Source of the DNA: a virus
Strand: one strand, 5' to 3'
IMG/VR virus record: IMGVR_UViG_3300045988_076321
Length of the DNA stretch: 36,548 nt
How positions within the stretch are numbered: position 1 is the first letter of the stretch; each line of letters starts with the position of its first letter. The position numbers and the translations under genes are program-made. The notes under the pieces were generated by a model. The model was not told the DNA's origin. It saw only the letters and a program-made list of their open reading frames with translations, and did not search any database. Of the stretch, positions 1-36,548 are shown one piece after another.

Positions 1-141
1 AAGGACCCTGACCTGGGGAACGCGTCCGGAACGGCGATCAATTTCCGCTATATGGACCTGTCGTCCGACTGCGATTCCCTGGCGACCGAACTGAAGGACA
101 CCTTCCAGCGCCTGAAACTGTTCATCGACGTTTACCTTCAG
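1..141. repeat. Terminal direct repeat, identical to 36408..36548; assembly overlap of a circular or circularly permuted genome
   Basis: Read directly: nt 1-141 (aaggaccctgacctgggg...tttaccttcag) recur base for base at 36408-36548, and the portal reading frame is continuous across the junction. Confidence 0.9.
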
Positions 142-14155: not shown

Positions 14156-14902
14156 ATGGCAAGATTTAAGTCTATCGTCACGGACGCCGGAGCGGCGGCC
14201 CTGACGGCCCTGATCGCGGCCGGAAAGCCGCTGATCCTGACCCGTGCGGCGGCCGGAAGCGGCGTCGCCACCGTCAGCCCGAACACCCTGGCGGACCTGG
14301 TGACGCCGGAGAACGTCGCCGTGAGCCTGGGCGAAAAGGATCTGATCGAGGGCGACCCCGCGATCATGCGAATCCCCGTCCAGGTGACGAACGAAGCCCT
14401 GGACGCCCCTGTCTGGATCAGGGAAGTCGCCGTCTACGGGAACACCATCGACAACACAGAAGTCATGTTCTGCTATGGCTGGCTGGACGGCGATGACAGC
14501 GACAACGTCCTTCCGGCGACGTCCTTCGAGGAAGACGCCGACACCGTCCATATCCACGACCTGGCCGTCTTCGTGACGAACCAGGAAGCCGCGTCCGTGT
14601 CCGTACAGGTGGCCCCTGGTTCCTATGTCACCCGTGAGCAAATGACCACCTACGCGGCGCCCCTGGTCCACACCCAGGGCGCGGACACCATCACCGAAAC
14701 CACCGGAGAGAACACGGAACAGGTCCAGCGCCGCCAGGACAGCGACATCGAAGCGATCAAGGAGCAGTTGAACACCGGCTTCACCGGAACCACCGTGACC
14801 CACACCTTCGCCCCCGCGCAGCTTTCCTACTGGAAGGGCTATGACGGGACCGGAGTTCCCGAAGGGATTCTGGACCAGACAAGGAACCGCCTGTATCTGT
14901 GA
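14156..14902 (+). CDS. Tail fibre / tail-collar fibre protein
   Basis: 248 aa. The N-terminus MARFKSIVTDAGAAALTALIAAGKPLILTRAAAGSG... resembles a phage tail-collar fibre N-terminal domain. It is the last gene of the Xkd-like baseplate block. Confidence 0.65.
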   Translation: MARFKSIVTDAGAAALTALIAAGKPLILTRAAAGSGVATVSPNTLADLVTPENVAVSLGEKDLIEGDPAIMRIPVQVTNEALDAPVWIREVAVYGNTIDNTEVMFCYGWLDGDDSDNVLPATSFEEDADTVHIHDLAVFVTNQEAASVSVQVAPGSYVTREQMTTYAAPLVHTQGADTITETTGENTEQVQRRQDSDIEAIKEQLNTGFTGTTVTHTFAPAQLSYWKGYDGTGVPEGILDQTRNRLYL

Positions 14903-15276
14903 CCAGGATCGCCGCCACGCCGTCGGAAACCTCTTGCCTTATATCGAACCTGTTCACGGAACTTCGTCCCGTGTGCGGCTTCTGTGAGGGCGACAGCGTG
15001 GTTCTTTGCGGCATGACCTACGCCGGCACGGAAGAAGCCGTGGTCCTTCGGGACTACGGCTTCGACTTTACCGGAGACGCCGCTGTGGTCGAGAATATCC
15101 GGAATCGAAGGTGTATCAATGGGATCGCGAAGAAACTACCAGCGGAGCCAGCCCAGCAAGGGCGAAAGCCCGCTTCACATTCTGCCCGTCGCGGACAAAA
15201 TGATCGGCTTCACCCTGTCGACGACCGACAACCCGAAGCGTTTTCCGAAGAAGATCAGATTTTCCGTGACGAATAA
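14899..15276 (+). CDS. Hypothetical protein upstream of avd; only the first roughly 73 codons look coding
   Basis: The GTG start overlaps the fibre stop (gtga). Codon style resembles neighbours up to about 15118. The remaining 158 nt overlap avd in another frame. Confidence 0.35.
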   Translation: MTRIAATPSETSCLISNLFTELRPVCGFCEGDSVVLCGMTYAGTEEAVVLRDYGFDFTGDAAVVENIRNRRCINGIAKKLPAEPAQQGRKPASHSARRGQNDRLHPVDDRQPEAFSEEDQIFRDE

Positions 15277-15577
15277 AATCCAGGGCCACGCCCTGGCGAT
15301 CTATGACTACCTGGTCGAAGCGAACGAAATCTTCCCCATAATGGACGACCAGGACAAGGCCGACCGCCTGAAACTTCAGCGCGCCGCGCTGACGGAGTGC
15401 AAGAAACTTTTGCACATGATCCAGCTTTCGAAGGACCGCGGCTATATTGACAGCGGGACCTTCGACTACTGGACGAAGCTGACGGTCGACGTGAAATGTA
15501 TGACCGCCCGATGGTACGACGCCGAACGGAAGACGGGAATCCCCGTCGAGCCGGCCGGCCCGATCCCTGAAGGCTGA
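15119..15577 (+). CDS. avd: DGR accessory variability determinant (Avd, four-helix-bundle protein)
   Basis: 152-aa basic helical ORF with RBS gaaggtg. ...LPVADKMIGFTLSTTDNPKRFPKKIRFSVTNKIQGHALAIYDYLVEANEI... matches the Avd / 23S-rRNA-IVS four-helix-bundle pattern. It sits immediately 5' of the TR. Confidence 0.8.
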   Translation: MGSRRNYQRSQPSKGESPLHILPVADKMIGFTLSTTDNPKRFPKKIRFSVTNKIQGHALAIYDYLVEANEIFPIMDDQDKADRLKLQRAALTECKKLLHMIQLSKDRGYIDSGTFDYWTKLTVDVKCMTARWYDAERKTGIPVEPAGPIPEG

Positions 15578-15604
15578 TCATAAATCATTAGGGAACGATC
15601 TGTC

Positions 15605-15709
15605 ACCCCGAACGCCGGCAACGCGAACAACGCGCGCAATGTCAACACGGACGGCAGTCTGAACAACAACAACGCGTACAACGGCAACAACGGCGTCCGG
15701 CCGGATTTG
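15605..15709 (+). repeat. DGR template repeat (TR)
   Basis: Non-coding 105-nt segment between avd and the RT, with 12 in-phase AAC triplets and 1 AAT. It is identical to VR1 and VR2 except at TR adenines. Confidence 0.95.
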
Positions 15710-15880
15710 GTGGAAAACGGGACTGATTAGGGCGGAAAGCCTGAAAACAGAGTATCACCAACAAAGGAGATCGTTTCCTTCCGAAGGGCCGCGACAGTCC
15801 CTTCGGTAAATACATGATTGACGACGAAAGGCCTTCAACAGCGACGGCCGGACTATCAGCGTCAAGGAGGATTTTTCTTT

Positions 15881-17122
15881 ATGAAGGATCAGGGAACGCC
15901 CGCCCATGACTTCGCGTCCGTGACGGACTTCAACAATCTATATCAATCGTTTACAGAAGCGCGCAAAGGGAAACGGTGGAAGTATTCCGTGTGCAAATAT
16001 GAAGCGAATGTCCTGGAAAACCTTCTGTTCATTCAGGTCATGCTTCAGCGCCATAAATACCGCCTGTCCCCGTACAACTGCTTCTTCGTGCATGAACCGA
16101 AAGAACGGCTGATCATGTATAACAGCTTCCGCGACAAGATCGTTCAGCATTGTTTATGTGAACAGGTCCTTGAACCGCTTCTTTCGAAGACATTCATCTA
16201 TGACAACTACGCGAGTCAGAAGGGCAAAGGGACCCACTTCGGCCTTGACCGACTGAAGGCGTTCATGGCGGCCTACTACCGCAAGAACGGCGCCGGCGGC
16301 TGGGTGCTGAAGTGCGACGTCCGCAAGTATTTCTATCGGATCAATCACGACGTTCTGAAGACCCAGCTTCGCCGGCTGATCAAGGACCGCGACGTCCTGT
16401 GGCTTCTGGACATGATCATCGACTCCACGGAGGGACCAGGGATTCCGATCGGGAACCACACTTCACAATGGTTCGCGATCCTCTACCTGTCCGACATGGA
16501 CCACATGATCAAGGAACGTCTGGGAATCAAATATTATGGCCGATACATGGACGACTTCTATTTGATACATGAGGACAGGGCCTATTTGCAGTTCTGCCTG
16601 GAAGAAATCCGCCGGTTCCTGGTCCCCCTGGGCCTGGAACTGAACCAGAAGACGGCCATATTCCCGTTATCCCAGGGGATCGACTTCCTGGGCTTTCGGA
16701 CCTACCTGACGGACAGCGGAAAGGTCGTCCGGAAGGTACGCCGTGAGAGCAAGAACCGGATCAGGCGGAAGATCACGAAGTTCCGCCACCTGGTAGACGA
16801 AGGCCGTGTCGACTTCGACACGGTCCTTCAGTCTTATAATTCCTGGACCGGCCACGCCGAACACGGCAACAGTTATCACCTGATCAGCGAGATCGACGAC
16901 CTGTTCTTCAACCTGTTCAGGAAAGAAATGGAGGGAAAACCCTATGGCGAAATCTCTATCCGCTTTGCCCGTTGGAAGCGTCGTCAAGTCGGCGAACACA
17001 AAGTACAACGGACAGGCGATCAGGTGGATCGTCGGCACACAGGACACGTCCCAGGGCCGAACGGGCCTGGTGACGGAAAAGATGATCACCCTGAAATGCT
17101 TCGACGCGAAGGAGTCCGGTAA
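15881..17122 (+). CDS. DGR reverse transcriptase
   Basis: RBS aaggagg sits 9 nt upstream of ATG 15881. RT motifs include ...GIPIGNHTSQWFAILYL... (DGR-type [IV]GxxxSQ) and ...YGRYMDDFYLIH... (YxDD). The last 179 nt overlap the downstream target gene out of frame. Confidence 0.95.
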   Translation: MKDQGTPAHDFASVTDFNNLYQSFTEARKGKRWKYSVCKYEANVLENLLFIQVMLQRHKYRLSPYNCFFVHEPKERLIMYNSFRDKIVQHCLCEQVLEPLLSKTFIYDNYASQKGKGTHFGLDRLKAFMAAYYRKNGAGGWVLKCDVRKYFYRINHDVLKTQLRRLIKDRDVLWLLDMIIDSTEGPGIPIGNHTSQWFAILYLSDMDHMIKERLGIKYYGRYMDDFYLIHEDRAYLQFCLEEIRRFLVPLGLELNQKTAIFPLSQGIDFLGFRTYLTDSGKVVRKVRRESKNRIRRKITKFRHLVDEGRVDFDTVLQSYNSWTGHAEHGNSYHLISEIDDLFFNLFRKEMEGKPYGEISIRFARWKRRQVGEHKVQRTGDQVDRRHTGHVPGPNGPGDGKDDHPEMLRREGVR

Positions 17123-18650
17123 CAGCAACAGCGACCGCCGGAGTTACGGCAATAACCGTTATTCCGTTTCGAACATCGACAAGTGGCTGAACAGTGCGGC
17201 CGCGTCCTGGTATGCCGCACAGCACGGAGCCGACGCCCCGCCCACGTCCGCGAACTGTTGGAACGGCTATAACCCCTACGACACCGAAGCCGGCTTCCTG
17301 GCGAACTTCGAAGCCGCCTTCCGAAACGCGATCCTGGATTCCACGATCCGCGTCGCGAAGAACACCGTCACCGACGGCGGCGGTTATGAAGACATCGTTC
17401 GACAGGTCTTTTTGCTTTCGAACACGAACGTCGGCCTTTCCAACGAAAACGGCGTGGCCGAAGGTTCCTTGTGGTCCTACTTCAATTCCGCGTCGCGCCG
17501 CCAGTGCTACCCCACGGCGGAAGCCGTCAGCAAGTCCACCTACACCAGTTCCAGCCTGTCCGCTTCTCAATATTGGTGGTGGTGGTTAAGAACCCCGCAC
17601 GCCGGCAACGCGTACTACGCGCGCAATGTCTACACGGACGGCAGTCTGAACAACGGCTACGCGTACAGCGGCCCCGGCGGCGTCCGGCCGGCTTTGTATT
17701 TGGCATCTTCGAATCTGGTATCCGATACAACCGACACAGACGGCGCTTATATCCTTCTGTGGAACCAGCCGCCCACAGCCCCGTCTTCCATTACCTACGG
17801 CACCCCCCAGGCGGGACAGAACCTGACCCTGTCGACCGGCGGATCGACCGATCCGGAGGGCGACGCCATTTCCTACGTCTGGGAACGGAAGGTGGATTCC
17901 GGCGTCTGGACCCAGATCGGGATCACCACCGCGAAGACGATCCAGGACACGGTCCCGTCCAGCGGAACAACCTACTACGCGCGCGTGAAGGCCGTGGACG
18001 CGGTCGGGAATGAATCGGCATATTGCACCGGTTCCGGAAAGGCCATTTCCTACAACACCCCGCCCGTGATCAGCGGTTCCGACCAGAACATGGGCGCGAA
18101 GACCGACCCCTTCACCTACAAATACACCGTCACCGACGCCCAGTCCGCCACCCAGACCATGACCGTGACGGAAACCCTGACCAACGGAACGGAAACCATC
18201 ACCCTTCGCACCTACACGGCCACGGCCGGCGCCCAGAACACCGCCGACCTGTCGTCCGTCTGGATCAGGCTGACCGCGGGGACCCACGTCCTGAAGATCA
18301 CCGCTTCCGACGGCGCCGGTGGAACGGCTGTCCGGAACATCACCTTCAGCCGCACCGTCACCAGGATCGCCGCGGCCCGCGCCTTCAACACCGACGCGAA
18401 GGTCACGAAGGTCTTCGTTTCCCTGTACCCGTCCGACCGTCCGGCCGGTTCCACGCTCCACCTGGAAGTGACGAACAACCCGTTCGACACGAACCCCGTC
18501 TGGGAGGACATCACAGAGAAGGCGAACCGCCTGGTCCACACCTTCGCGAACAGCACCGTCGCAAATGGCTACGGCCTGGGCTATCGGTTCTATCTGCTGA
18601 AGGGAACGGAGGAAATCGAGATCACCCAGGCGACGATCCGTTTCGCCTGA
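16944..18650 (+). CDS. DGR target protein 1: fibre/receptor-binding-like protein with an N-terminal C-type-lectin-fold-like variable domain followed by Ig/FN3-like repeats
   Basis: 568-aa ORF with RBS ggaggga. Contains VR1, which encodes WWWWLRTPHAGNAYYARNVYTDGSLNNGYAYSGPGGVRPALYL. Downstream are beta-rich repeats (PPTAPSSITYGTPQAGQNLTLSTGGSTDPEGDAISYVWERKVD...). Confidence 0.9.
   Translation: MAKSLSALPVGSVVKSANTKYNGQAIRWIVGTQDTSQGRTGLVTEKMITLKCFDAKESGNSNSDRRSYGNNRYSVSNIDKWLNSAAASWYAAQHGADAPPTSANCWNGYNPYDTEAGFLANFEAAFRNAILDSTIRVAKNTVTDGGGYEDIVRQVFLLSNTNVGLSNENGVAEGSLWSYFNSASRRQCYPTAEAVSKSTYTSSSLSASQYWWWWLRTPHAGNAYYARNVYTDGSLNNGYAYSGPGGVRPALYLASSNLVSDTTDTDGAYILLWNQPPTAPSSITYGTPQAGQNLTLSTGGSTDPEGDAISYVWERKVDSGVWTQIGITTAKTIQDTVPSSGTTYYARVKAVDAVGNESAYCTGSGKAISYNTPPVISGSDQNMGAKTDPFTYKYTVTDAQSATQTMTVTETLTNGTETITLRTYTATAGAQNTADLSSVWIRLTAGTHVLKITASDGAGGTAVRNITFSRTVTRIAAARAFNTDAKVTKVFVSLYPSDRPAGSTLHLEVTNNPFDTNPVWEDITEKANRLVHTFANSTVANGYGLGYRFYLLKGTEEIEITQATIRFA
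17592..17696 (+). repeat. DGR variable repeat 1 (VR1)
   Basis: Hand alignment to the TR shows 13 mismatches over 105 nt, all at TR adenines (e.g. AAC to CAC, TAC, GGC, AGC, CCC). Confidence 0.95.
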
Positions 18651-18668: not shown

Positions 18669-19142
18669 ATGTCTTTCAACTCGCACGACTGCGAAACCGT
18701 CAGCATGAAGGAAGCCCAGGAACAGGAAAAGAACAACCCCGTCACCCAGATCGCGGCGGCGGCGTCCATCGCCTTCGTGGTCCTGGCGGAGGGCGGCCAG
18801 ATCGACGACGTCACCGCCACGGAGAACGTCGAGCAGTTCGCCCCCTGGGCCTACCCGATCGCCTACAAAAAGGGCAATATCCGCCGCTACGGTTCCGACC
18901 TGTACCGGTGCAACCAGGACCACACTTCGCAAGCCGACTGGACCCCCGCGGCCGCCGCGTCCCTGTGGTCGAAGATCGGCGACCCGACGGAGGAATGGCC
19001 GGAATGGTCCCAGCCGGTCGGCGCCCATGACGCCTATAACGCCGGCGCGAAGGTGTCCCATAACGGGAAGCACTGGACGTCCGACGTCGCGTCGAACGTC
19101 TGGGAACCTGGCGTCTACGGTTGGACGGAGGTGACGGCATGA
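18669..19142 (+). CDS. Protein with two CBM5/12-like carbohydrate-binding repeats
   Basis: 157 aa with RBS gaaaggaggg. Repeats YKKGNIRRYGSDLYRCNQDHTSQADWTPAAAASLW and YNAGAKVSHNGKHWTSDVASNVWEPGVYGW resemble the chitin-binding CBM5/12 signature. Confidence 0.6.
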   Translation: MSFNSHDCETVSMKEAQEQEKNNPVTQIAAAASIAFVVLAEGGQIDDVTATENVEQFAPWAYPIAYKKGNIRRYGSDLYRCNQDHTSQADWTPAAAASLWSKIGDPTEEWPEWSQPVGAHDAYNAGAKVSHNGKHWTSDVASNVWEPGVYGWTEVTA

Positions 19143-20790: not shown

Positions 20791-21276
20791 ATGGGAATGA
20801 AGCTGGACGGACTGGCGAACTTCGGGAAGGCCCTGGTCGCCCTTCAGGCCGATATACCGGAGATCATGGACAAACTGGTCGTCGGCGAAGGCCGCTTCGC
20901 CCGTGACCAGGCCAGGAAGATTTGCACCGAAGAAAACATCATCAACACCGGCGACTATCGCCGGAACTTCAACAGCAGTTCGAAGGCGATCCGGATCGGG
21001 ACGGCCTACAAGATCGACGTCTTCAACAACCTGGACTATGCGAAGCCCCTGGAATATGGCTTCCGCGGCCACTTCGTCCCTGGACATTGGGACGGGAAGT
21101 CGTTCGTCTACCAGCCGAAGGACCCGCAAGGGGGAATGTTCGTCCATTCCCTGATTCCTGGTCACTACACCCTGGAACGGGCCGTCAACGCCACGAAGCG
21201 CACCCAGAACGCGCGCCTTCAGCGCCGCTTCGAACAGGAACTGAAGAAGCGTGGCTACATGAAGTATTTCAAATAG
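20791..21276 (+). CDS. HK97 gp10-family neck/tail-completion protein (displaced from the neck module)
   Basis: 161 aa. ...INTGDYRRNFN...IDVFNNLDYAKPLEYGFR... matches my recollection of the gp10 family pattern (TG.L..s......YA..vEfG). Confidence 0.6.
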   Translation: MGMKLDGLANFGKALVALQADIPEIMDKLVVGEGRFARDQARKICTEENIINTGDYRRNFNSSSKAIRIGTAYKIDVFNNLDYAKPLEYGFRGHFVPGHWDGKSFVYQPKDPQGGMFVHSLIPGHYTLERAVNATKRTQNARLQRRFEQELKKRGYMKYFK

Positions 21277-21280
21277 AAAG

Positions 21281-21312
21281 ACGCCCAGGGGACGAACCCC
21301 TGGGCGTTTTTT
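21281..21312. terminator. Bidirectional rho-independent terminator
   Basis: acgcccagggg-acgaa-cccctgggcgt is a perfect 11-bp stem, flanked by an A-rich run 5' and tttttt 3'. It lies between convergent genes. Confidence 0.85.
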
Positions 21313-21783: not shown

Positions 21784-22029
21784 GTGAAGAAGTTCGACTA
21801 CAACGGCCGGAAGAATATCTGTGGAAATCGCGTCCGTTGTCTTCGGACGGCGCGACGATGGTCCCAGGCGGCCCTTGCCGCCAAAATGCAGACCCAGGGC
21901 GTAATCATGGAACAGGACGTCGTCAGCAAGATCGAATCCGGCGACCGCCTGGTTACAGACTACGAAGTCCGCGCCTTCGCGGCGGTCTTCGGCGTGGCCT
22001 TTGAAAACCTGATCGAAGACGAAGAATGA
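21784..22029 (+). CDS. XRE-family helix-turn-helix transcriptional regulator (Cro/CI-like)
   Basis: GTG start 8 nt after RBS gggagg. ...GNRVRCLRTARRWSQAALAAKMQTQGVIMEQDVVSKIESGDRLVTDYEVRAFAAVFGV... is the HTH_3 pattern. The upstream in-frame ATG 21733 lacks an RBS and would cover the operator. Confidence 0.8.
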   Translation: MKKFDYNGRKNICGNRVRCLRTARRWSQAALAAKMQTQGVIMEQDVVSKIESGDRLVTDYEVRAFAAVFGVAFENLIEDEE

Positions 22030-22067
22030 ACGGCCTTCCGGATCAGAACCGGAGGGCCGTTTTTTTC
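22030..22067 (+). terminator. Rho-independent terminator
   Basis: acggccttccgg-atcagaa-ccggagggccgt forms a 12-bp stem followed by ttttttt. Confidence 0.85.
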
Positions 22068-22070
22068 TGC

Positions 22071-22099
22071 TTGACAATATACTACCGGTAGTATATAAT
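22071..22099 (+). promoter_or_regulatory. Consensus sigma-70/SigA-type promoter (TTGACA-17 nt-TATAAT)
   Basis: TTGACA at 22071-22076 and TATAAT at 22094-22099 with an exact 17-nt spacer, about 27 nt upstream of the RHH gene. Confidence 0.75.
22077..22096. promoter_or_regulatory. Perfect 20-bp palindromic operator (ATATACTACCGGTAGTATAT) inside the promoter spacer
   Basis: The reverse complement of ATATACTACC is GGTAGTATAT. The palindrome spans the whole spacer and the first 3 nt of the -10 hexamer. Confidence 0.7.
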
Positions 22100-22308: not shown

Positions 22309-22313
22309 ACGCG

Positions 22314-22349
22314 AAGGCCCTGTCCGAAAGGACGGGGCCTTTTATTTTA
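22314..22349 (+). terminator. Rho-independent terminator between the RHH gene and the transposase gene
   Basis: aaggccctgtcc-gaaa-ggacggggcctt forms a 12-bp stem followed by ttattttat. Confidence 0.75.
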
Positions 22350-22369: not shown

Positions 22370-23416
22370 ATGAAACGTCGCAGATTCAAGCAACTGACCA
22401 GAGCGGATCGCCTGAATATCGAAAAGTATCTTCGCCAGGGTATGACGAAACAGGCCGTCGCCGACGCCCTGGGCGTCAGCCTTCGAACGGTATATTATGA
22501 ACTGAAGCGCGGCCAGTATATCCACACCAATTCCGACCTTACGGAGGAAGTCCGTTATAGCTGTGACGTCGCCGAATCAGTCAAGAAGTACAACGGCACG
22601 AACAAAGGCCCACAGTTAAAGATCGGCAACGACCACGAACTGGCGGCCTACATTGAACGGCGGATCGTGGAAGACGGCTATTCGCCGGCGGCGGTCCTTG
22701 GAGAAATCCGCGTCAAGGGAATGAAGTTCAAGACGTCGATCTGTAAGTCGACACTGTATTCCTATATCCGGAAGGGCGTCTTCCTGACCCTTGAAATGCG
22801 CGACCTTCCCCGTCACGGTAAGAACAAGCGCGGCTACACCCGCACCCACAAGAAGGGCGCCAGGGCGTCCGCCGGAACCAGCATTGAACACCGGCCGGAG
22901 GAAGTGAACGCCAGGACGACCGTCGGTCATTGGGAAATGGACTCCGTCCTGGGAAAGAAGAAGACGAAGCCGGCCCTTCTGGTCCTGTCTGAACGACTGT
23001 CCAGGAAGGAACTGATCATCAAGGTCCAGGATCACACCGCCGCCAGCGTAGTTCGCGCCCTGGACCGCCTGGAACGGAAGATGGGATCGCCGGCCTTCCG
23101 TGCCACCTTCAAGTCGATAACCGTCGACAATGGTTCCGAGTTTGCCGACGTCGACGGCATGGAACGAAGCTGTCGCCGAAAGGGGCCGCGGACGAAGGTC
23201 TATTACTGCCACCCCTATTCTTCCTGGGAACGCGGGACCAACGAAAACACGAACGGCCTGATCCGCCGCTGGTTCCCGAAGGGGACAGACTTCAGCAAAG
23301 TCAGCGTCCAGGAAATCCAGAAGGTCGAAGACTGGCTGAACGCCTATCCCCGCGAAATCCTGGGCTTCCTATCTGCTGACGCGGTCTTCTCCACCGCCTT
23401 CGCGGCCTGTGTCTGA
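22370..23416 (+). CDS. IS30-family DDE transposase/recombinase
   Basis: 348 aa. It has an N-terminal HTH (RADRLNIEKYLRQGMTKQAVADALGVSLRTVYYELKRG) and DDE region motifs HWEMDSV, TVDNGSEF and SSWERGTNENTNGLIRRWFPKGTDF. No flanking inverted repeats could be identified by eye. Confidence 0.9.
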   Translation: MKRRRFKQLTRADRLNIEKYLRQGMTKQAVADALGVSLRTVYYELKRGQYIHTNSDLTEEVRYSCDVAESVKKYNGTNKGPQLKIGNDHELAAYIERRIVEDGYSPAAVLGEIRVKGMKFKTSICKSTLYSYIRKGVFLTLEMRDLPRHGKNKRGYTRTHKKGARASAGTSIEHRPEEVNARTTVGHWEMDSVLGKKKTKPALLVLSERLSRKELIIKVQDHTAASVVRALDRLERKMGSPAFRATFKSITVDNGSEFADVDGMERSCRRKGPRTKVYYCHPYSSWERGTNENTNGLIRRWFPKGTDFSKVSVQEIQKVEDWLNAYPREILGFLSADAVFSTAFAACV

Positions 23417-23445: not shown

Positions 23446-23474
23446 TTGACTTTTGCGCAGCCCCCGTGTATAGT
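23446..23474 (+). promoter_or_regulatory. Putative early-operon promoter (TTGACT-17 nt-TATAGT)
   Basis: TTGACT at 23446-23451 and TATAGT at 23469-23474 in an AT-rich 133-nt gap. A TTTTGCAAAA palindrome lies at 23431-23440 just upstream. Confidence 0.5.
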
Positions 23475-27491: not shown

Positions 27492-27896
27492 GTGGAAACC
27501 TGGAAAGTGACGATCCCTGGCCTTTTACCTGGCCTGAATGAGTACATAGACGCGGAACGCGCCGTCAAGGGCAAGTACAAGGCCGCCGCCATGAAGAAAC
27601 AGGCCGAAAATGTGATCGGCTTCATGGTGAAGACCCAGCTTCGCGGTGTCCGCTTCGACCGGCCGGTGATCATTCATTACCGCTGGATCGAGCCGAACCG
27701 CCGCCGCGACAAGGACAACGTCGCCTTCGCGAAGAAGTTCATTCAGGACAGCCTGGTCCACGCCGGCGTCCTGGTGAACGACGGCTGGAACCAGATCGAG
27801 GGCTTCACGGACGACTTCGCCGTGGACCCGAAGAACCCCCGCGTGGAAGTGACTATCGAGATATTCGAAGGAGGAAAACGACATGGCAAATATTAA
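27492..27896 (+). CDS. rusA: RusA-family Holliday junction resolvase
   Basis: 134 aa with a GTG start. ...LPGLNEYI...RRRDKDNVAFAKKFIQDSLVHAGVLVNDGW... shows the RusA catalytic Asp pattern. Confidence 0.75.
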   Translation: METWKVTIPGLLPGLNEYIDAERAVKGKYKAAAMKKQAENVIGFMVKTQLRGVRFDRPVIIHYRWIEPNRRRDKDNVAFAKKFIQDSLVHAGVLVNDGWNQIEGFTDDFAVDPKNPRVEVTIEIFEGGKRHGKY

Positions 27897-28479
27897 GACT
27901 TTGAAGGACCTGACCCCTGGGACCGTCTTCGACGCCGGCCCGATCGACGTCCGCGTCCTGGATCACATGACCAACGGGACGACCCTTCTGATCGCCGACA
28001 AGGCGGTCGCGTGGCGTCCCTTCTCCCTGGAACCCCTGAAGACCCGTCCGGAGGAAGCGCCTACCCCTTACCCGAACGACTTCAGCCTGTCCTATCTGAA
28101 GGACGAACTGAACGGTCCCTTCCTGGCGGCCTTCGACACCGCCGGCGGCCCGATCCGTTCCGCGAACATCGTGGAAGCGAACTGGTCCCTGGCAGATCAC
28201 CGCGGCGGCTTCGGCTACGGCAACACGAAGGCGAAGATCAGCCTTCTTCCCGAAGCCCTGTTCCTGAAGTACAAGTCCCTTCTGGCCCTGGACGACTGGT
28301 GGTGGCTTGCGACCCCGTACGCCGGCCACGCGCGCATCGCGCGCACTGTCATCACGGACGGCAGTCTGTACGGCTACTACGCGTACCTCGGCTACCGCGG
28401 CGTCCGGCCGGCTTTCTTCGCGGAATCTGGAATCATTCTGGAATCCGACGGCGGCGAAGCGGTGGAAGCCCATGAATAA
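27883..28479 (+). CDS. DGR target protein 2: stand-alone variable ligand-binding domain protein (remote target)
   Basis: 198-aa ORF overlapping the rusA end by 14 nt. Its C-terminal part carries VR2 (DDWWWLATPYAGHARIARTVITDGSLYGYYAYLGYRGVRPAFFAES). The fold signature (W..L..P...GVRPA) is shared with target 1. No N-terminal signal or TM segment is visible. Confidence 0.9.
   Translation: MANIKTLKDLTPGTVFDAGPIDVRVLDHMTNGTTLLIADKAVAWRPFSLEPLKTRPEEAPTPYPNDFSLSYLKDELNGPFLAAFDTAGGPIRSANIVEANWSLADHRGGFGYGNTKAKISLLPEALFLKYKSLLALDDWWWLATPYAGHARIARTVITDGSLYGYYAYLGYRGVRPAFFAESGIILESDGGEAVEAHE
28312..28415 (+). repeat. DGR variable repeat 2 (VR2)
   Basis: Hand alignment to TR 15605-15708 shows 18 mismatches, all at TR adenines. 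The first non-A mismatch (G vs C) is at 28416 and marks the repeat boundary. Confidence 0.95.
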
Positions 28480-33572: not shown

Positions 33573-34100
33573 ATGGCGAAGATCACGAAGAAGAATGAAG
33601 TCTTCTGTGAAGAATATCTGATCGACCTGAACGCGACCCAGGCCGCGATCCGCGCCGGATATTCTCCGGATTCTGCGGGAAGTATTGGATTCGAATTGCT
33701 GAAGAAACCTGAAATTCGCGCGCGCATTGATCAGGCGATGGCCGAAAGGTCGAAGCGGACGGGGATCAATGCCGACCGCGTCCTTCGCGAACTGGGAAGG
33801 ATCGCCTTCCTGAACCCGAAGGACGTGATCGACCTGAACACGGCTGAAGTCCTGGACACGGCCACCGACGACGACCTGGCGGTGATCGCCGGCGTCAAGG
33901 TGAAGTATGTCCCACACAAGGACTTCGATGAAGACGGCGAACCTGTCATTGAACAGGCAATCGAACGCGAAGTGAAGATGGCCGACAAGCTGAAGGCCCT
34001 GGAACTGTGTGGTCGTCACCTGGGAATGTTCAAGGACAATCCCGAAGGGAACGCACCTGTGACGGTGGTGATCAACTATGACTACGGCGGCGAAGATTGA
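33573..34100 (+). CDS. Terminase small subunit (Terminase_2/P27 family)
   Basis: ...KNEVFCEEYLIDLNATQAAIRAGYSPDSAGSIGFELLKKPEIRARIDQ... is the classic terS HTH signature. Confidence 0.9.
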   Translation: MAKITKKNEVFCEEYLIDLNATQAAIRAGYSPDSAGSIGFELLKKPEIRARIDQAMAERSKRTGINADRVLRELGRIAFLNPKDVIDLNTAEVLDTATDDDLAVIAGVKVKYVPHKDFDEDGEPVIEQAIEREVKMADKLKALELCGRHLGMFKDNPEGNAPVTVVINYDYGGED

Positions 34101-35363: not shown

Positions 35364-36548
35364 ATGGCCGAATATTCCGTCATGGACCGGATCAATATGA
35401 TCATTTCCGATCCGGACCACGCGACAATGACCCTGGCCCAGATCGTGACCGAAGAAATCAGGGAGTTTAAGGCATCCGAGCAGTACGCGAACATGATCCA
35501 GGCCGAAGCCTATTACAGAAACCGGACCGACGTCCAGCGGAAGACGAACGACGTCGCGAACCGGTCGAATACCAGGATCGAACACCCGATTCTGAAGAAG
35601 CTGGTCGACCAGAAGGCGAACTACCTTCTGGGGAAGCCCTTCACCGTGGACACGAAGAACAGTTCCTACGGCGACGCCCTGAACGACGTCTTCGACCAGA
35701 CCTTCCGCCGGAAGATTAAGTCCCTGGGGAAGGGCGCTGTGAAGTCCGGTATTGCATGGCTTCAGCCCTACTTCGACGACGGGAAACTGGCCTTCATGCG
35801 AATCCCGTCCGCGGAACTGGTCCCGATCTGGCGCGACGCAGAGCGAACGAAGCTGGACGCCTTCATTCGCTTCTATGACCAGGTGATCTACATCGGCACC
35901 AGGAAGCACACGATCACCCACGCCGAACTGTGGTGGACCGGCGGCGTCAAGTATTTCAAAACCGACGCCTTCGCCGGCACCATCGCCGGCGACTTCATCG
36001 TCGACACCGAACACGGCGACGAAGCCAACGACTACACCGAACCCCATTTCACCGTCGGCGACAAGGCCTACAACTGGGACACCGTCCCGATCGTCTGGCT
36101 GAAGTACAACGAAGAGGAACTTCCCCTTTGCTACTTCATCAAGGACCTGATCGACGACATCAACTGGCAGACGTCCGTGACCGCCGACGTTCTCCGCGAC
36201 GTGGCGAAGTTCATCTATATCCTGAAGAACTACGGCGGCCAGGACTTGGGCGAGTTCATCAAGGACCTGAAGGAACACATGGCGATCAAAGTCACCACCG
36301 ACGGCGGTGTGGACAAACTTCAGGCCGATCTTAATATCGACGCCGTCATGGCCTTCCTGGATAAACAGCGACGCGACGTCTACGACTTCGCCGCGGCCGT
36401 CGACACGAAGGACCCTGACCTGGGGAACGCGTCCGGAACGGCGATCAATTTCCGCTATATGGACCTGTCGTCCGACTGCGATTCCCTGGCGACCGAACTG
36501 AAGGACACCTTCCAGCGCCTGAAACTGTTCATCGACGTTTACCTTCAG
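35364..36548 (+). CDS. Portal protein (SPP1 gp6-like), N-terminal part; continues at 142..450 of the window through the circular junction
   Basis: ATG 35364 lies after RBS aagggag. I translated by hand and the frame is open to the window end. The total reconstructed length is about 497 aa. Confidence 0.85.
   Translation, partial: MAEYSVMDRINMIISDPDHATMTLAQIVTEEIREFKASEQYANMIQAEAYYRNRTDVQRKTNDVANRSNTRIEHPILKKLVDQKANYLLGKPFTVDTKNSSYGDALNDVFDQTFRRKIKSLGKGAVKSGIAWLQPYFDDGKLAFMRIPSAELVPIWRDAERTKLDAFIRFYDQVIYIGTRKHTITHAELWWTGGVKYFKTDAFAGTIAGDFIVDTEHGDEANDYTEPHFTVGDKAYNWDTVPIVWLKYNEEELPLCYFIKDLIDDINWQTSVTADVLRDVAKFIYILKNYGGQDLGEFIKDLKEHMAIKVTTDGGVDKLQADLNIDAVMAFLDKQRRDVYDFAAAVDTKDPDLGNASGTAINFRYMDLSSDCDSLATELKDTFQRLKLFIDVYLQ
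36408..36548. repeat. Terminal direct repeat, identical to 1..141
   Basis: Same 141-nt string as the window start. Confidence 0.9.

Follow-up and report, generated by a model that had tools for sequence, protein, structure and literature searches.

Evidence for a diversity-generating retroelement that rewrites two DUF6273 proteins from one template in a gut phage genome

We analyzed the 36,548-nt virus record IMGVR_UViG_3300045988_076321 of IMG/VR (hereafter, the window, meaning this whole stretch of DNA) and found what is very probably a complete diversity-generating retroelement (DGR) of the avd-TR-RT type, in which an accessory variability determinant (Avd), a non-coding template repeat (TR) and a reverse transcriptase (RT) rewrite two DUF6273 proteins from one template; we put the probability of this reading at about 93%. 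An earlier description made from the letters alone (the sequence-only reading) had placed the element at 15119-17122. The limits of its open reading frames (ORFs) hold, but this span covers avd, TR and RT only, and the system also includes the targets at 16944-18650 and 27883-28479, each of which contains a variable repeat (VR). The components are as follows.

15119-15577, + strand: avd, accessory variability determinant, 152 aa, assigned from weak family matches, fold and position
15605-15709, + strand: TR, non-coding, 32 adenines, defined by ungapped comparison
15692-15705, + strand: 3′ end of the TR, a putative IMH*/IMH-like discriminator made up of the GC-rich sequence GGCGTCCGGCCGG plus A15705
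15881-17122, + strand: DGR-type reverse transcriptase, 413 aa, assigned from a structure-database match and motifs
16944-18650, + strand: target 1, tentaclin-type, 568 aa, with DUF6273 at aa 42-254 and a C-terminal part of ~300 aa
17592-17696, + strand: VR1, target 1 aa 217-251, 13 of 13 differences at TR adenines
27883-28479, + strand: target 2, small stand-alone DUF6273 protein, 198 aa
28312-28415, + strand: VR2, target 2 aa 144-178, 18 of 18 differences at TR adenines

Adenine-restricted differences between one template and two variable repeats

The TR follows the avd stop (15577) and precedes the RT start (15881), and both VRs lie in frame inside protein-coding targets, VR2 at a distance of 10,707 nt downstream of the TR. 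The 105-nt repeat described in the sequence-only reading, with 12 AAC triplets, 1 AAT and 32 adenines, was reproduced exactly, and so were its counts of VR differences. By ungapped comparison, VR1 departs from the TR at 13 positions (A>C 4, A>T 4, A>G 5) and VR2 at 18 (A>T 8, A>C 6, A>G 4); all 31 mismatches fall on TR adenines and none on C, G or T, an outcome with a probability of ~1e-16 by chance. Homology between VR2 and the TR stops at 28416 (G>C), one base earlier than for VR1. The TR/VR family was also the top result of an unbiased repeat search of the window, and a looser scan with 45-nt sub-windows over both strands recovered these three copies and no fourth.

The AAC and AAT triplets are whole codons in the frame of both targets, and TR adenines occupy codon position 1 (16) and position 2 (16) and never position 3, so that mutagenesis alters amino acids and stop codons are impossible. 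The number of possible peptide variants is ~2e18 per target.

One adenine stands apart from the others. The sequence GGCGTCCGGCCGG is common to the TR and both VRs, and the next base is always A in a TR and always C in a VR. Because the A>C change at A15705 recurs unaltered in the VR1 and VR2 copies of all relatives examined, we count it as a fixed mark of the TR/VR boundary near the 3′ end and not as a product of mutagenesis; the adenine-specific mutagenesis proposed earlier, which is upheld by the restriction of all differences to adenines and by hypervariability among relatives, does not extend to this position. By analogy with Bordetella phage BPP-1, the GC-rich 3′ end and A15705 may together act as an IMH*/IMH-like discriminator that sets the direction of transfer.

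Relatives of the element are numerous in IMG/VR, and eight of them, with VR1 flanks 93-99% identical, formed a set of nine genomes together with the window. The TRs of these relatives are identical to that of the window or differ by one base (identical in L002 and L006-L010, with all 32 adenines kept), and each VR1 is unlike the TR at 12-17 adenine positions, a different set in each genome. Over the nine genomes, 28 of the 32 adenine columns of VR1 vary, compared with 2 of the 73 other columns. VR2, found through target 2 in nine relatives, varies at adenine columns only, and a target 2 locus (L087) lies on the same contig as an RT locus (L008). Across 39 TR-VR pairs from 37 loci, 571 of 600 mismatches fall on TR adenines (A>G 238, A>T 196, A>C 137), and no two of the 39 VRs are alike. 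Distinct VRs within near-identical flanks indicate recent and repeated homing in this lineage. Both targets are thus diversified in nature, as seen between genomes, and this requires that homing into both has been recent and repeated.

Homologues of target 2 among public proteins form more than 1000 distinct clusters at 90% identity, and an alignment of 30 homologues is near-invariant except at the VR codons. These cluster numbers illustrate both how DGR variation inflates protein cluster counts and how common this phage group is in gut samples.

In two relatives (L032:9744-9848 and L131:9723-9827), the repeat that occupies the template position, from avd to RT, has lost many adenines through A-to-N changes, with the TR-type 3′ end kept. 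In these cases, it appears that the template itself underwent mutagenesis or arose by conversion of a VR; an assembly chimera is also possible. Loss of template adenines would erode the capacity for diversification.

The reverse transcriptase, Avd and the structured RNA

The RT stop at 17122 holds, and the likely start is the ATG at 15881, which has an AAGGAGG site upstream (15864-15870), and not the TTG at 15818. The translation contains GIPIGNHTSQWFAILY and GRYMDDFYLI, and with them the PIGNHTSQWFA and YMDDF motifs on which the DGR assignment had first been based; the DGR-type IGxxxSQ motif is present as IPIGNHTSQ, and YMDD is also intact. Its best relative among solved structures is the Bordetella phage DGR RT (bRT, 8ub7), matched over residues 13-340 with E = 2.9e-42 and 148 bits, whereas group II and retron-type RT structures follow far behind (~1e-14, next match 8e-15). 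These matches support placing the enzyme in the DGR clade rather than in other RT classes, as had been proposed.

Homology of the RT ends near aa 340-354, and its last ~60 codons overlap target 1 in a different frame (179 nt, 16944-17122). The overlap is 179-212 nt in relatives, with RT lengths of 376-424 aa; in the gut phage nd12 (GenBank OR777946, which we compared directly), the RT has 351 aa and runs only 16 nt into target 1. The C-terminal ~60 codons look like an unconstrained read-through tail.

The ORF upstream of the TR had been called an Avd-like four-helix bundle, and modeling agrees: AlphaFold (18 homologues) returned four helices with a pLDDT of 81. Foldseek placed 2gsc and 2rld first (2rld is labelled 'S23 ribosomal protein family', and we take both to be members of the Avd-related PF05635 family), followed by Bordetella bAvd (8ub7 chains B-E and 4dwl), with target-normalised TM scores of 0.65-0.84 in the listed chains, most of them 0.78-0.84. 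The N-terminus is conserved among homologues. Since the modeled bundle matches bAvd and the ORF has the matching position in the cassette, fold and position support its identification as Avd, a protein that in DGRs assembles from such bundles into a pentamer. Much as the RT tail runs into target 1, another ORF (14899-15276) overlaps avd by 158 nt (15119-15276); its PHROG match spans the first 75 residues only.

Conservation over the 170 nt from TR to RT points to structure. Pairing around the TR was assigned manually and by folding the duplexes of individual sequences, using 17 distinct spacer sequences from clades with 43-99% RT identity. RNAalifold on MAFFT alignments gave fragments only, and an automatic helix search on the spacer alignment, where the clades are out of register, found no helix. 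The elements are listed here in order.

15590-15601, + strand: 5′ strand of the clamp duplex, AGGGAACGATCT, pairing with 15768-15779
15710-15880, + strand: spacer (Sp) RNA between TR and RT, recognized by helices and covariation
~15707-15713 with 15756-15763, + strand: helix P1
15730-15742, + strand: hairpin P2
15762-15767, + strand: conserved motif CAAAGG
15768-15779, + strand: 3′ strand of the clamp duplex, AGATCGTTTCCT
15781-15806, + strand: hairpin P3, which folds in 17 of 17 representatives
15807-15814, + strand: A-rich motif UAAAUACA, conserved and present in all representatives
15818-15823 with 15860-15865, + strand: composite stem P4, ending at the RT ribosome-binding site, judged by eye

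The strongest of these elements is the 12-bp duplex that clamps the TR from its flank to the spacer. It is perfect in 10 of 10 clade representatives despite many sequence changes, which are compensatory (the strands are AGGGTATGTCCT/AGGACATATCCT in L030 and AGGGTGCGGTTT/AAACCGCATCCT in L036), and cognate strands pair with a mean energy of -20.7 kcal/mol, compared with -14.3 for non-cognate strands. Within the spacer, 19 hand-set pairs are 92.9% paired over the 17 sequences, against 28-51% when the partners are slid by 1-3 columns, and 10 of the 19 show compensatory change. A helix between the TR 3′ end (15692-15698) and GGAGAUC (15766-15772) was considered as a template-primer duplex and rejected, as it has one covarying pair and overlaps the better-supported clamp. 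Stem P4 joins TTGACG (15818-15823) to CGTCAA (15860-15865) with an inner GGCC/GGCC pair, shows compensatory changes by eye in the 75% and 83% clades, and terminates within the RT ribosome-binding site. The stem could link folding of the RNA to translation of the RT.

In the BPP-1 RNA and in 207 other DGRs, the sequences on either side of the TR have been described as pairing into a duplex, next to which come a stem-loop and then adenosines, and further stem-loops directly follow the TR (bioRxiv 10.1101/2023.10.23.563531). The same succession of flank duplex, stem-loop and adenosine-rich stretch is found here. Through the clamp duplex, P3 and the A-rich motif, the RNA model of BPP-1 is extended to gut phages of Gram-positive hosts, and the covarying elements offer precise sites for mutagenesis.

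By homology with BPP-1, we propose that the avd-TR-Sp-RT transcript folds so that the clamp duplex closes off the TR, and that a complex of RT and Avd would bind the structured spacer and prime cDNA synthesis in cis near the TR 3′ end. The RT would then copy the TR, misincorporating opposite adenines, and stop at the clamp duplex. In two genes, the cDNA would take the place of the matching 105-nt stretch, with the GC-rich 3′ end common to TR and VRs as its guide, and the TR itself would be spared, marked by A15705 where the VRs have C.

Several observations weigh against the reading of a complete and working two-target DGR. The Avd ORF matches PF05635 (E = 2.7e-5) and NF033474 DivGenRetAVD (E = 5.3e-6) below the cut-offs of both, and sequence searches with the ORF or with an 18-sequence Avd profile found no solved structure. 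The lectin fold of both targets is predicted from Pfam DUF6273 and from published models of homologues, in which the VR forms a surface beta-hairpin of a C-type-lectin fold, the ligand-binding face; for target 2, AlphaFold with 30 near-identical homologues was unusable (pLDDT 33). There are two candidate priming helices, one of which overlaps the clamp duplex. No hairpin or cruciform like that of BPP-1 rises above background 3′ of VR1 or VR2: the 100 nt after each fold no more stably than shuffles (z = -0.07 and +0.43), and inverted repeats there are short and scattered. Such a structure is an optional feature, present in BPP-1 and in only a subset of other DGRs. Finally, the element in this genome is apparently active on the evidence of variation between genomes, not within one sample.

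This last point bears on an alternative, that the DGR was once active and is now dead, its adenine-only differences being historical. All our measurements compare genomes, the altered templates of L032 and L131 show that elements of this kind can degrade, and the RT ORF carries an unconstrained tail; nevertheless, we regard a dead element as very unlikely. The catalytic and DGR-specific motifs of the RT are intact, the TR keeps its 32 adenines and is identical in the six relatives named above, the avd ORF is conserved, as are the Sp helices, which show compensatory changes, and 39 of 39 VRs are distinct despite flanks that are 93-99% identical.

Still more improbable is a reading in which target 1 is the only true target and VR2, a paralogous copy left by duplication or recombination, is no longer rewritten. 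VR2 does lie 10.7 kb from the TR and outside the structural module, and its homology is one base shorter than that of VR1, but it differs from the TR at adenines only (18 of 18) and from VR1 at many positions, its adenine columns are hypervariable among relatives in a 198-aa protein that otherwise hardly changes, and nd12-like and nd4-like phages also have the second target, again variable (PMC10743442). Hardly credible at all is an RT of another class (group II intron, retron, Abi or DRT defence) beside unrelated repeats: the domain is a generic RVT_1 with a group II intron RT/maturase as its best NCBIfam model and with DRT-type matches in PADLOC, but every such match is far below its cut-off in NCBIfam (group II 107 bits against 300, retron 33 against 235, Drt models 16-54 against 200-550, and Abi likewise) or below the bRT match in PADLOC (DRT models; the generic RT model scores 123 bits), the RT has no maturase or endonuclease domain, an Rfam scan of the window yielded no intron RNA, and only a DGR explains both the adjacent Avd and the adenine-only repeats.

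Two DUF6273 targets, one in the tail-to-lysis region and one among replication genes

The two proteins rewritten under the DGR reading differ in size and setting. Target 1 has an N-terminal DUF6273 (E = 1e-37), and VR1 occupies the C-terminal end of this domain, a position in the N-terminal third of target 1 rather than at its C-terminus. The family phrog_10993 ('Hoc-like head decoration') matches target 1 end to end (2.4e-200), and the first target of nd12 (nd12_tgt1) is a full-length homologue with 44% identity (E = 2e-149), aligned through aa 554 of 568. The C-terminal ~300 aa are homologous to the Ig-like part of nd12_tgt1; a Pfam search found no Ig or Fn3 domain in target 1 at E of 0.01 or better, and among solved structures aa 361-495 weakly matched a tail-fibre protein (E = 3e-4). 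Antibody chains that appeared in this structure search were rejected as chance matches. Target 1 is presumably displayed on the virion. Directly after it, a 157-aa protein (18669-19142) carries two CBM_5_12 carbohydrate-binding modules; this may be a further protein that binds surfaces or is associated with lysis, its gene accompanying that of the tentaclin.

Target 2 matches DUF6273 with E = 2.9e-7 and phrog_9958 with E = 3.4e-37, is 36% identical to nd12_tgt2 (E = 3e-15), and has VR2 at the C-terminal end of its domain. Its start overlaps a RusA-like resolvase gene by 14 nt. Upstream are genes for Gam, Erf, a replication initiator, a DnaC-like loader and RusA, and downstream is a DNA methyltransferase gene; genes for a peptidase-like protein, a pyrophosphatase, SSB and a regulator occupy 31.4-33.4 kb, and the terminase genes start at 33573, which puts target 2 ~5 kb upstream of the small terminase gene. 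These neighbors and the terminase position place target 2 outside the structural module. A metagenomic prophage (L123) likewise has target 2 after a RusA-like gene.

Because its gene is in the early/replication region, target 2 might be a non-virion protein, made early and acting inside infected or lysogenic cells, where it could bind, for instance, a variable factor of the host or of a rival phage. We consider this unlikely; if true, a DGR would be diversifying a non-structural phage protein with the same template that also diversifies a virion-displayed tentaclin.

Related systems, genome context and host

The gene order avd-TR-RT-target, singled out in the sequence-only reading as unlike that of BPP-1, does differ from the BPP-1 order (mtd-avd-TR-brt) but is already catalogued (PMC5758913, PMC10743442, PMC11792537). 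Cassettes of the avd-TR-RT type whose targets vary in position make up architecture B1 of Wu et al. 2018, who also recorded non-adjacent targets within prophages (PMC5758913). The arrangement avd-TR-RT-target 1 with a distant target 2 was published for the gut phages nd4 and nd12 by Baykov et al. 2023 (Int J Mol Sci 24:17324, PMC10743442), who gave the tentaclin consensus in figure form, and likewise for Lelie and CP11, two Faecalibacterium phages in which a large and a small DUF6273 protein are the DGR targets (Microbiol Spectr 2024, PMC11792537). The two-target design was thus already described in related gut phages in 2023 and is not a new kind of system.

The closest comparison is with nd12 and nd4, which share the order avd, TR, RT and target 1, with target 2 far off in the same genome. 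The TR-to-VR1 spacing is 1987 nt in both nd12 and the window, target 1 is a full-length homologue of the nd12 'tentaclin', nd12_tgt2 is a homologue of target 2, each with its VR at the 3′ end of the gene, the TR peptides resemble each other (…DGSLNNNNAYNGNNGVRP), and the same Sp RNA helices are found with compensatory changes. The second VR of nd12 is 14 kb away, close upstream of a methyltransferase gene, and target 2 of the window also precedes one. The nucleotide identity to nd12, ~67%, is confined to the DGR cassette, and the flanking tail and lysis genes are unmatched at the DNA level. Target 2 has 198 aa here, compared with 294 and 234 aa in those two phages; the match to nd12_tgt2 covers its C-terminal two-thirds, and the DUF3310-like N-terminal helix described in PMC10743442 is apparently missing here. 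Further differences are the longer overlap of the RT with target 1 (179 nt against 16 nt) and the host lineage, here Lawsonibacter; no prophage was found for nd12 (PMC10743442).

With BPP-1 the element shares RT homology over the whole RT domain, an Avd-type four-helix bundle, adenine-specific transfer from TR to VR, and a GC-rich 3′ end with a TR-specific difference, in addition to the RNA architecture. It differs in having its adjacent target downstream of the RT rather than upstream, two targets rather than one, DUF6273-type targets rather than the Mtd trimer, VR1 in the N-terminal domain of a long protein, no recognizable hairpin after the VRs, and a Gram-positive gut anaerobe as host. Like Lelie and CP11, it serves a large and a small target from one TR, both with DUF6273 and with the VR at the C-terminal end of the domain, and its RT gene is detectably similar at the DNA level to those of Lelie, CP11 and the FP_Mushu/FP_Brigit group. 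FP_Mushu and FP_Brigit have Hoc-like DGR targets, and target 1 falls in the PHROG family 'Hoc-like head decoration'. The Faecalibacterium phages differ in genome and host, and RT protein identity to them is only ~45%.

The ends of the window (1-141 and 36408-36548) are identical over 141 nt, indicating that the contig is a closed genome of 36,407 bp. The portal gene crosses the junction of the ends, and 52-450 is its C-terminal part. The tail module, described earlier as PBSX-like, is indeed of the PBSX/Xkd type, with genes for a sheath, an XkdM-type tube, an XkdN-like chaperone, a LysM protein, a YqbQ-like protein, DUF2577, a sheath initiator, baseplate J and a Gp48-like protein. We found no strong + strand terminator between the tail genes and 21276, and the cassette is therefore probably transcribed with the late genes. 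Three strong terminator-like hairpins (21276-21312, 22028-22062 and 22313-22342) and a perfect TTGACA-17-TATAAT promoter (22071-22099) lie in the short stretch between the lysis genes and a transposase gene; they show where the late operon stops and set off an integration region under its own control. Searches of the window for Rfam families and tRNAs returned none.

A prophage in Lawsonibacter sp. LCP25S3_E2 (NZ_JBQKJL010000001.1) has 97% nucleotide identity to the window, and another related prophage lies beside rpsF-ssb-rpsR on a 171-kb metagenomic contig. Homology to the first ends at 23457 and homology to the second starts at 23459, and this break locates the attachment site or junction at 23457-23459. 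The gene adjoining it (22370-23416) encodes an IS30-like DDE transposase (phrog_4646), not a tyrosine or serine integrase, and the transposase probably serves as the integrase. The phage is a temperate myovirus of gut Oscillospiraceae (Lawsonibacter-type Clostridia) with its DGR in the late, tail-to-lysis region. A DNA-level search found no close phage relative of the whole region in GenBank; matches were confined to the cassette and covered no more than 21% of the query.

The element leaves existing knowledge of DGRs unchanged, and offers a clean and complete two-target example for annotation in a closed phage genome. LCP25S3_E2, apparently a cultured lysogen, makes the ligands of tentaclin and target 2, the virion membership of target 2 and the timing of the DGR testable. 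Unannotated copies of the element are common in metagenomic collections.

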